Both the position numbers and the translations under genes were made by a program. A DNA stretch of 40,673 bases from Escherichia phage KM02. The notes beneath the pieces were generated by a model. It saw only the letters and a list, made by a program, of their open reading frames with translations, was not told the DNA's origin and did not search any database. Within the stretch, counting starts at the first letter, position 1, and each line of letters begins with the position of its first letter. The stretch is taken from sequence record PQ179042, one strand, 5' to 3'. Shown one piece after another: positions 2-40,673 of this stretch.

Positions 2-177
2 TCTCACAGTTCAAGAACCTCAAGTCTCCCCATAGGCCCTCTTTCAGTCAGACCAAAGGCCCTACCCCAGTCTATCATAAGGTTGGACCGATGGTCAAGA
101 CTTCAGGTCAACGATAGGTAGAGGCTATGGCTTAGGGAAGGACGATAGGTTGGGACTATGGGTCTTCTTTGAGTCTC
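2..177. repeat. Left direct terminal repeat (176 bp), identical to 40498-40673
   Basis: Exact match of window start (from nt 2) to window end; nt 1 (t) does not match 40497 (a). T7 has a comparable 160-bp terminal redundancy. Confidence 0.95.
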
Positions 178-197
178 TATCTGTATAGTGTTATAGT
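169..197 (+). promoter_or_regulatory. Candidate host sigma70 early promoter (TTGAGT-17-TATAGT)
   Basis: -35-like ttgagt at 169-174, 17-nt spacer, -10 tatagt at 192-197; straddles the terminal repeat boundary. Confidence 0.4.
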
Positions 198-214: not shown

Positions 215-298
215 ACCTACAGTCTCACTAACCTACAGTCTCACTAACCTACAGTCTCAACCATAAGACACCAACACCTACAGTCATAGACCTACAGT
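215..298. repeat. Array of five ACCTACAGT-core short repeats (two full 16-bp units ACCTACAGTCTCACTA) beginning 38 bp inside the left terminal repeat boundary
   Basis: Copies at 215, 231, 247, 276 and 290, read directly. Confidence 0.8.
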
Positions 299-39897: not shown

Positions 39898-39920
39898 CTT
39901 AACTATCACTATAGGGAAGA
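39898..39920 (+). promoter_or_regulatory. Phage-RNAP promoter near the right end (phiOR analogue)
   Basis: cttaactatcactatagggaaga at 39898-39920. Confidence 0.7.
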
Positions 39921-40258: not shown

Positions 40259-40420
40259 CGCAATCATGATAACGATTCATGAGCGGAAGACCTAAGGTCA
40301 GTACGTGGATAAAGACTCACTCTACTGACCTTAGCTACTGTAGTCAAGGACTTTAGGTAACACCTTAATAGAAGCTCACTTAGGGTCATCCTACTTATTG
40401 GTCTATCCTAGTGTCGCCTG

Positions 40421-40459
40421 ACCTACGGTCCTTGACCTACAGTGGCTGTGGCCTACAGT
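40421..40459. repeat. Three (A/G)CCTAC(A/G)GT short repeats ending 38 bp before the right terminal repeat
   Basis: acctacggt 40421-40429, acctacagt 40435-40443, gcctacagt 40451-40459; same core as the left-end array. Confidence 0.75.
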
Positions 40460-40497
40460 AGTGACGATGAGTTTTGGACCAAAAGTTTGAGACCACA

Positions 40498-40673
40498 TCT
40501 CACAGTTCAAGAACCTCAAGTCTCCCCATAGGCCCTCTTTCAGTCAGACCAAAGGCCCTACCCCAGTCTATCATAAGGTTGGACCGATGGTCAAGACTTC
40601 AGGTCAACGATAGGTAGAGGCTATGGCTTAGGGAAGGACGATAGGTTGGGACTATGGGTCTTCTTTGAGTCTC
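40498..40673. repeat. Right direct terminal repeat (176 bp), identical to 2-177
   Basis: Exact sequence identity with the left end, read directly. Confidence 0.95.

Follow-up and report, generated by a model that had tools for sequence, protein, structure and literature searches.

Short-repeat arrays on both sides of the terminal repeat of Escherichia phage KM02: probable counterparts of the T7 flanking arrays with a possible accessory role at the concatemer junction

The genome ends and the two repeat arrays

The window, by which we mean the whole stretch of 40,673 bp analysed here, comprises the complete genome of a T7-like phage in the genus Kayfunavirus (the K1F group, Studiervirinae), and the best Kayfunavirus match to its ends reaches 95.9% over the first 800 bp and 97.5% at the right junction. 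The genome is bounded by a direct terminal repeat (TR) of 176 bp, which begins with TCTCACAGT, the same start as in T7 and K1F. Base 1 of the record is an additional T ahead of TCTCACAGT, outside the TR, where K1F and T7 begin at TCTCACAGT itself, and this base is probably an artefact of assembly trimming or end repair. The TR also contains two units of about 29 bp (ACGATAGGT-n4-G(G/A)CTATGG, at about 110-137 and 139-167), a repeat system distinct from the arrays that flank the TR. The two terminase subunits, gp18 and gp19, are of the T7 type (Table 1), and a homologue of gene 19.5 was recognised by its match to PHROG 2193. The phage promoter core, AACTATCACTATAGG, occurs in eight exact copies on the + strand, the last of which belongs to a phiOR-like promoter directed to the right end, reading via gene 19.5, an inverted repeat, the right array and the TR to the pause site. 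Near the left end (1-2700) we found no phage-type promoter equivalent to the phiOL of T7 and T3, the first AACTATCACTATAGG being at 2733.

Table 1 Features at the genome ends and packaging genes of the window
Feature	Position	Strand	Details
Left TR copy	2..177	+	100% identity to 40498-40673
Concatemer-junction (CJ) pause-site homologue for phage RNA polymerase, TATCTGTA	178..185	+	Directly after TR
Left short-repeat array	215..298	+	Exact ACCTACAGT at 215, 231, 247, 276 and 290; degenerate ACCATAAGA at 261
gp18, terminase small subunit, 87 aa	37207..37470	+	Pfam PF11123, E = 3.8e-12; PHROG 1351, E = 1.1e-34
gp19, terminase large subunit, 588 aa	38036..39802	+	Pfam PF22530 (T7 terminase RNaseH-like domain), E = 6e-38
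Last phage-RNA-polymerase promoter, phiOR-like	39901..39915	+	Exact AACTATCACTATAGG core
Perfect 12-bp inverted repeat, CTAAGGTCAGTA / TACTGACCTTAG, 19-nt loop	40292..40334		Centre ~185 bp left of right TR
Right short-repeat array	40421..40459	+	ACCTACgGT at 40421, ACCTACAGT at 40435, gCCTACAGT at 40451
Conserved box of 38 bp between right array and TR, gacgatgagttttggaccaaaagtttgagaccaca	40460..40497	+	Nearly invariant in 20 distinct Kayfunavirus junctions, part of the set chosen by match to this box
Right TR copy	40498..40673	+	100% identity to 2-177

The five left copies claimed by the original prediction were all recovered as exact matches to ACCTACAGT on the + strand, the first three of them forming a perfect 16-bp tandem repeat, ACCTACAGTCTCACTA. 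A degenerate copy, ACCATAAGA (261-269), sits in the 29-bp gap of this array, and because it fills that gap the left array can be described as six units with a period of 13-16 bp. For the three copies claimed on the right, the number stood and all three keep the core CCTAC(A/G)G, but only one of them is exact, the other two carrying one mismatch each; they are spaced by 14 and 16 bp. All copies in both flanks have the same orientation, and the arrays are direct repeats, not mirror images. Their distances from the TR, previously given as 38 bp on each side, are nearly but not exactly equal, the left gap (178-214) counting 37 bases and the right gap 38. A hidden gene or a structured RNA at the arrays was rejected, since there is no open reading frame of at least 25 aa over 205-334 and no part of the window has an Rfam match. 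Upstream of the right array (40378-40410) lies a 17-bp imperfect tandem repeat, ACTTATGGGTCTATCCT-like, which contains an 11-mer, GGTCTATCCTA, that is also found identically in the T7 right flank (at about 650-665 of the T7 locus), suggesting a residual homology of the entire right flank between genera.

The clustering of the copies in both arrays is far above chance, with Poisson probabilities of ~2e-11 for at least five CCTACAG in 84 nt and ~4e-5 for at least two in 39 nt. Among 1950 interior windows of 240 nt, none contained any 7-mer five times or more, and when interior segments of the genome were paired at random, a 7-mer repeated in both members was found in 45 of 5000 pairs. The remaining 39.5 kb hold nine copies of CCTACAG on the + strand and ten on the - strand, where a maximal-order Markov model expects 7.8 and 10.5, respectively. 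This agreement on both strands led us to reject a genome-wide orientation or avoidance signal for the heptamer, and there is thus no avoidance of the kind that a strong signal might cause. An apparent interior excess of one-mismatch 9-mers (38 against 11.8 expected) vanishes for the core under a higher-order model, and we attribute it to oligonucleotide and codon bias.

The two spacers that separate the arrays from the TR differ in content, the left one holding an RNA-polymerase pause site and the right one a pre-terminus box. ATCTGT stands directly after the TR in all Kayfunavirus junctions as well as in T7, T3, K11, gh-1 and Berlin, and the GenBank records of K11 and PE3-1 label this spot 'concatemeric junction'. 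The class II pause signal of T7 RNA polymerase is TATCTGTT (PMC9157156), from which TATCTGTA differs in the last base, as do the corresponding sites of gh-1 and Berlin. Between the pause site and the left array lies a segment of about 29 bp (186-214), tagtgttatagtataacattacgtcctac, confined to a sub-lineage made up of the window, BUCT788, vB_EcoP_F, PRF-SP11 and PH1061, whereas K1F, PE3-1 and ST64 carry CCATARG copies in its place. It is this additional segment that makes the left gap 37 nt long in the sub-lineage of the window; the distance from the TR to the first left copy is 10-63 nt within Kayfunavirus, 12-27 nt in other genera and 85 nt in SP6. The end of the TR and the segment 186-214 together make up a sigma-70-like site at 169-197 (TTGAGT-17-(TG)TATAGT).

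On the right, the gap is occupied in full by the conserved 38-bp box, which holds a small palindrome, TTTTGGaCCAAAA, and is related to the CCTTTAAGAAT..ACAnAAAAATCTGAGTG box of T7, T3, K11, gh-1 and Berlin. In T7, T3, K11, gh-1 and the window, 37-39 nt separate the end of the last right core copy from the TR. A reading of the symmetric 38/38 placement as a designed feature did not survive this comparison, as the right gap is a fixed box while the left one ranges over 10-63 nt in the genus, and the near-equality of the two gaps is incidental. For the recognition element of the cut that generates the left end of the genome, the box is a candidate, and a better one than the arrays.

The inverted repeat farther upstream has arms that are conserved among Kayfunavirus genomes and a loop that differs. 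In T7, T3 and K11 another inverted repeat (AGGGATTC...CATCCCT) lies at a similar distance, ~190 bp from the right TR, and at that position Chung, Nardone and Hinkle reportedly described, in 1990, a hairpin end on T7 concatemers. Alternatively, the inverted repeat of the window could be an RNase III site, such a site being annotated in the corresponding interval of gh-1.

Conservation within Kayfunavirus and comparison with other genera

We collected 16 distinct Kayfunavirus junctions, namely the window, K1F, 10 GenBank records assembled through the junction and 4 IMG/VR contigs, and found the CCTACAG core on both TR flanks in every one of them (16/16). The original prediction had named a lack of conservation in related phages as the outcome that would speak against it; since the core is kept in both position and sequence in these relatives, this outcome was not observed. 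In an alignment of the right flank from 20 distinct Kayfunavirus sequences, part of which were chosen by their match to the 38-bp box, copies 1 and 2 of the right array are invariant in 19, while the spacer around copy 3 is variable. Across the genus the right array consists of two to three copies with a fixed spacing of 14 and 16 bp.

The left array varies much more, with 2-7 copies of CCTACRG and 0-8 of CCATARG per genome, 2 to 15 units altogether, and with variable spacer sequence between the cores. From 59 left copies in 12 phages we derived an extended consensus, A-CCTACAG-T-C, in which the bases outside the defining core are themselves conserved (A in 55/59, T in 58/59 and C in 48/59). 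The proximal tandem units are lineage-specific, being TCTCACTAA in the window, TCTAACTA, TCCTACAA or TCACCAGA elsewhere and a fivefold CCATAGGTCTCAACAA in PE3-1, and the distal pair, CCTACAGTCATAGACCTACAGTTAATAGAC, is more stable than they are. Perfect proximal tandems that differ by lineage are the signature of recent slippage, and copy number appears to drift through slippage during replication. Some of the differences in left copy number among database records may also be assembly errors; repeat artefacts near terminal repeats have been reported in related phages (PMC10438801).

The comparison was extended to other genera by choosing, for each phage, the most repeated 7-mer of its left flank and then counting that 7-mer in all flanks (Table 2). 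When the window, T7, T3, K11 and gh-1 were cross-tabulated in this way, each motif had zero occurrences in the flanks of the other groups, the sharing between T7 and T3 excepted. The two-sided layout is common to seven genera in two subfamilies, and in each genome the heptamer matches between the two flanks. The layout is therefore family-wide and the heptamer lineage-specific, with the flanks of each genome always in agreement. In the literature that we searched, no description of this co-variation of the flanks across genera was found.

Table 2 Most repeated heptamer of the left flank and its copies on each side of the TR
Phage	Heptamer	Left copies	Right copies
Window (Kayfunavirus)	CCTACAG	5	2
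T7	CCTAAAG	8	2
T3	CCTAAAG	2	4
K11	CCTGAGG	2	2
gh-1	CCATAGG	4	2
Berlin	CCTTATG	6	3
SP6 (another subfamily)	CTTAGT(G)	7	2

The array periods are 13 bp in T7 and Berlin, 12 bp in SP6 and 14-16 bp in the window, none of them helically phased. In SP6 the (C)CTTAGT array, with its 12-bp period, follows the TR and two copies precede it, and Berlin has, beyond its CCTTATG array, a second and longer tandem array of GACTACTTAGA-type with 8-10 copies, for which the only annotation is 'repeat_region'. No consistent match was found between the phage promoter core and the array motifs. The observation that TCTCACAGT shares ACAGT with the motif of the window was rejected as a general rule, as this relation is absent in K11, gh-1 and Berlin.

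In T7 the flanking arrays are presumably those named SRL (left) and SRR (right) by Dunn and Studier in 1983 (J Mol Biol 166:477). The original prediction had suggested a comparison with the short repeats near the T7 ends, and T7 indeed carries equivalent CCTAAAG arrays on both sides of its TR. In both phages, cores of about 7 bp are arrayed just outside the TR on both sides, in one orientation and in non-coding DNA; the ATCTGT pause site precedes the left array, and 37-39 nt, taken up by a related conserved box, lie between the right array and the TR, with gene 19.5 and an inverted repeat upstream; and the left array exceeds the right, T7 having 12 left and 8 right copies when motif-like ones are included. 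The two differ in the core, CCTAAAG in T7 against CCTACAG, with CCATARG variants, in the window, where neither flank contains a single CCTAAAG. They also differ in period (13 bp against 14-16 bp) and in number, the window having fewer copies (6 left, 3 right). Unlike T7, the sub-lineage of the window has the 29-bp segment between the pause site and the left array, and no phiOL-type promoter lies to the right of the left array in the window. The T7 TR (160 bp) moreover holds three copies of the motif, whereas that of the window holds none. Since the two-sided layout is shared by T7, T3, K11, gh-1, Berlin and SP6, the arrays of the window are very probably the Kayfunavirus counterparts of SRL and SRR. 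The exact heptamer does not define this class of array, because the core is genus-specific in every genus examined; arrays of the SRL/SRR type beside the TR are already known from T7, and the CCTACAG version in the K1F group is a variant core.

A possible role at the concatemer junction and its alternatives

To our knowledge, no role has been established for the flanking arrays, even in T7, and our literature search found no paper that describes the arrays or subjects them to functional or binding tests. Their positions on either side of the TR support the suggestion that in a concatemer they would bracket the single shared TR, the order being phiOR-like promoter, gene 19.5, inverted repeat, right array, 38-bp box, TR, pause site and left array. 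Each CCTACAG core could then be a low-specificity binding site for a phage-encoded DNA maturation or packaging protein, and the clusters of such sites, with their period of 13-16 bp, might load or position a gp18-type complex on both sides of the TR, which is where two staggered cuts have to form the ends and where the TR has to be duplicated; lone CCTACAG copies elsewhere in the genome would be too sparse to act. At the junction, the complex of the phage RNA polymerase with lysozyme pauses and engages gp18 and gp19 (PMC3276506), and PacB is recognised by gp18 while gp19 cuts at PacC (PMC9860248). Because events at the junction, both pausing and PacB recognition, already involve gp18 and gp19, an oligomer of the small terminase gp18 would be the most economical candidate for binding the cores.

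We infer that selection acts on clustered binding sites and not on neutral repeats, because the cores are conserved while the spacers are free and the flanks change in concert, and because the copies have a single orientation and the position of the right array is fixed. That the arrays are accessory cis-acting elements in junction processing is our main reading, to which we assign a probability of roughly 0.4 to 0.45. The more specific proposal, based on sequence comparison, that the heptamer cores are binding sites of a phage-encoded junction-processing protein with gp18 as the candidate, is likewise tentative and falls somewhat short of an even chance. T7, T3 and K1F all infect E. coli and yet their motifs differ, which makes it more likely that the reader of the motif is encoded by the phage than by the host. 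A bolder and more doubtful version would have the heptamer arrays constitute a lineage-specific recognition code with a phage-encoded reader (e.g. gp18), rewritten at least six times and on both flanks together, the heptamers of the code being CCTACAG, CCTAAAG, CCTGAGG, CCATAGG, CCTTATG and CTTAGT. If this version were true, it would provide the first assigned function for SRL and SRR of T7, as well as a natural series of co-variation for mapping the DNA-reading residues of the protein. Repeats adjacent to the T7 TR have been visible since 1983, and it is the match between the two flanks in seven genera that makes a phage-encoded reader a testable hypothesis. The question also bears on how T7-family packaging signals are designed for transducing particles and phagemids, where the junction fragment now serves as a black box.

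If the arrays act at the junction at all, they are probably accessory, affecting efficiency or positioning, and not an essential pac signal. The great tolerance of the left array, in copy number (2 to 15 units) and in distance from the TR (10-63 nt), the slippage signature of its proximal units and the lack of helical phasing in the array periods argue against an essential or specificity role, and the interior frequency of CCTACAG, which follows the Markov expectation, also tells against a strong signal. The PacB and PacC elements of T3 and T7 share with the arrays both the concatemer junction and the gp18/gp19 terminase, and provide the functional setting of the arrays; unlike the arrays, they are experimentally defined as recognition and cleavage elements, and they lie within or beside the TR and outside the flanking arrays. 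The plasmid packaging experiments with T3 and T7 by Chung and Hinkle in 1990, and by Hashimoto and Fujisawa in 1992, both reportedly located the essential pac elements within or beside the TR and not in the arrays. T3 and T7 package their own DNAs specifically, going by the title of Tsuchida et al. 1996 as cited in PMC9860248, and since the two phages share CCTAAAG, the motif cannot be the determinant of this specificity.

One could also speculate that the arrays are a neutral by-product, that is, slippage-prone tandem duplications that turn over beside the TR without any cis-acting role, with gene conversion or template switching across the ~250-bp junction, in the course of recombination-dependent replication and TR duplication, keeping the left and right arrays similar. 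Such a process would readily account for the 100% identity of the first three 16-bp left units, for proximal units that have been homogenised differently in each lineage, from TCTCACTAA in the window to CCATAGGTCTCAACAA in PE3-1, and for a left copy number that spans 2 to 15, and repeat artefacts near terminal repeats are indeed documented (PMC10438801). It accounts poorly for a two-sided layout that persists in seven genera and two subfamilies despite the changed heptamer, for a core that stays invariant while the spacers diverge, and for a right array that is short and not tandemly homogenised, yet has its copies 1 and 2 fixed and its last copy kept 37-39 nt from the TR across genera. We consider neutrality unlikely. 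A role in genome entry or in the structure of the virion ends, instead of in packaging, would fit the larger size of the left array and its location within the first 300 bp, upstream of the earliest host-type promoters, given that left-end DNA enters the cell first; the repeats might then interact with proteins of the portal, the core or the ejection apparatus, or set the pace of the first, transcription-independent phase of entry, which Garcia and Molineux in 1996 reportedly found to cover ~850 bp of the T7 left end. It is nevertheless improbable, as it gives no reason for every genus to retain the same motif on the right flank as well, 40 nt ahead of the right TR, in an array that would sit ~215 bp from the end that enters last.

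Similar weight can be given to a function in transcription, which is to say little, for here too the right array, upstream of the TR, is left without an obvious role. The arrays would in this case modulate phage or host RNA polymerase around the junction, for instance to strengthen pausing or termination at the CJ site, or in the manner of a promoter or decoy element such as the leftward A0 promoter of T7, which is annotated at position 224, inside the T7 left array. The left array does begin 10-40 nt downstream of the conserved TATCTGT pause site, and the sigma-70-like site at 169-197 of the window could be taken in the same sense, but the promoter-like segment 186-214 is confined to the sub-lineage, and the heptamers resemble neither the phage promoter core, AACTATCACTATAGG, nor the class II pause signal. 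Very improbable, finally, is a function in replication, in which clustered primase or origin-like sites would prime synthesis near the ends and so yield the single-stranded TR tails needed for concatemer formation. GTC, the basic recognition triplet of T7 primase, ends 48 of the 59 left copies (ACCTACAGTC), but the bases 5' of it would template pppACUG, whereas T7 primase efficiently extends ACCC, ACCA or ACAC primers; the motifs of T7, K11, gh-1 and Berlin moreover have no consistent GTC, and lagging-strand priming towards the left end would require the other strand.

Analogues outside the T7 group and database records

The closest analogue of repeat arrays that bracket a processing site is the pac site of bacteriophage P1, where, as reportedly described by Sternberg and Coulby in 1987, clusters of a short oligomer, four on one side and three on the other, flank the region cut by terminase. 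The resemblance is one of working principle only, as there is no homology of sequence or protein between P1 pac and the arrays of the window. The P1 hexamers carry GATC and cleavage is under the control of Dam methylation, whereas no GATC occurs in ACCTACAGT(C) or its variants, and P1 is a headful packager without a fixed terminal repeat, unlike the window, whose genome ends are fixed with a TR. A Dam-regulated pac site of the P1 type was rejected on these grounds. A further parallel to the proposed loading of gp18 is offered by cosB of lambda, whose R-sites are bound by the small terminase gpNu1; there, too, a short site, present in several copies beside the place of cutting, brings in the small terminase and sets the position of the large subunit. 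Unlike the arrays of the window, the lambda sites lie on one side only, in mixed orientation and with an IHF bend, lambda DNA has cohesive ends of 12 nt in place of a duplicated terminal repeat, and there is no sequence similarity between cosB and the arrays.

The arrays also mark the concatemer junction of the genome and confirm the correct physical ends of the record. Many of the Kayfunavirus genomes deposited in GenBank are circularly permuted assemblies, and these records annotate short 'hypothetical proteins' (in one case an 'alpha,alpha-trehalase') over the TR and the arrays, annotations that are almost certainly spurious.
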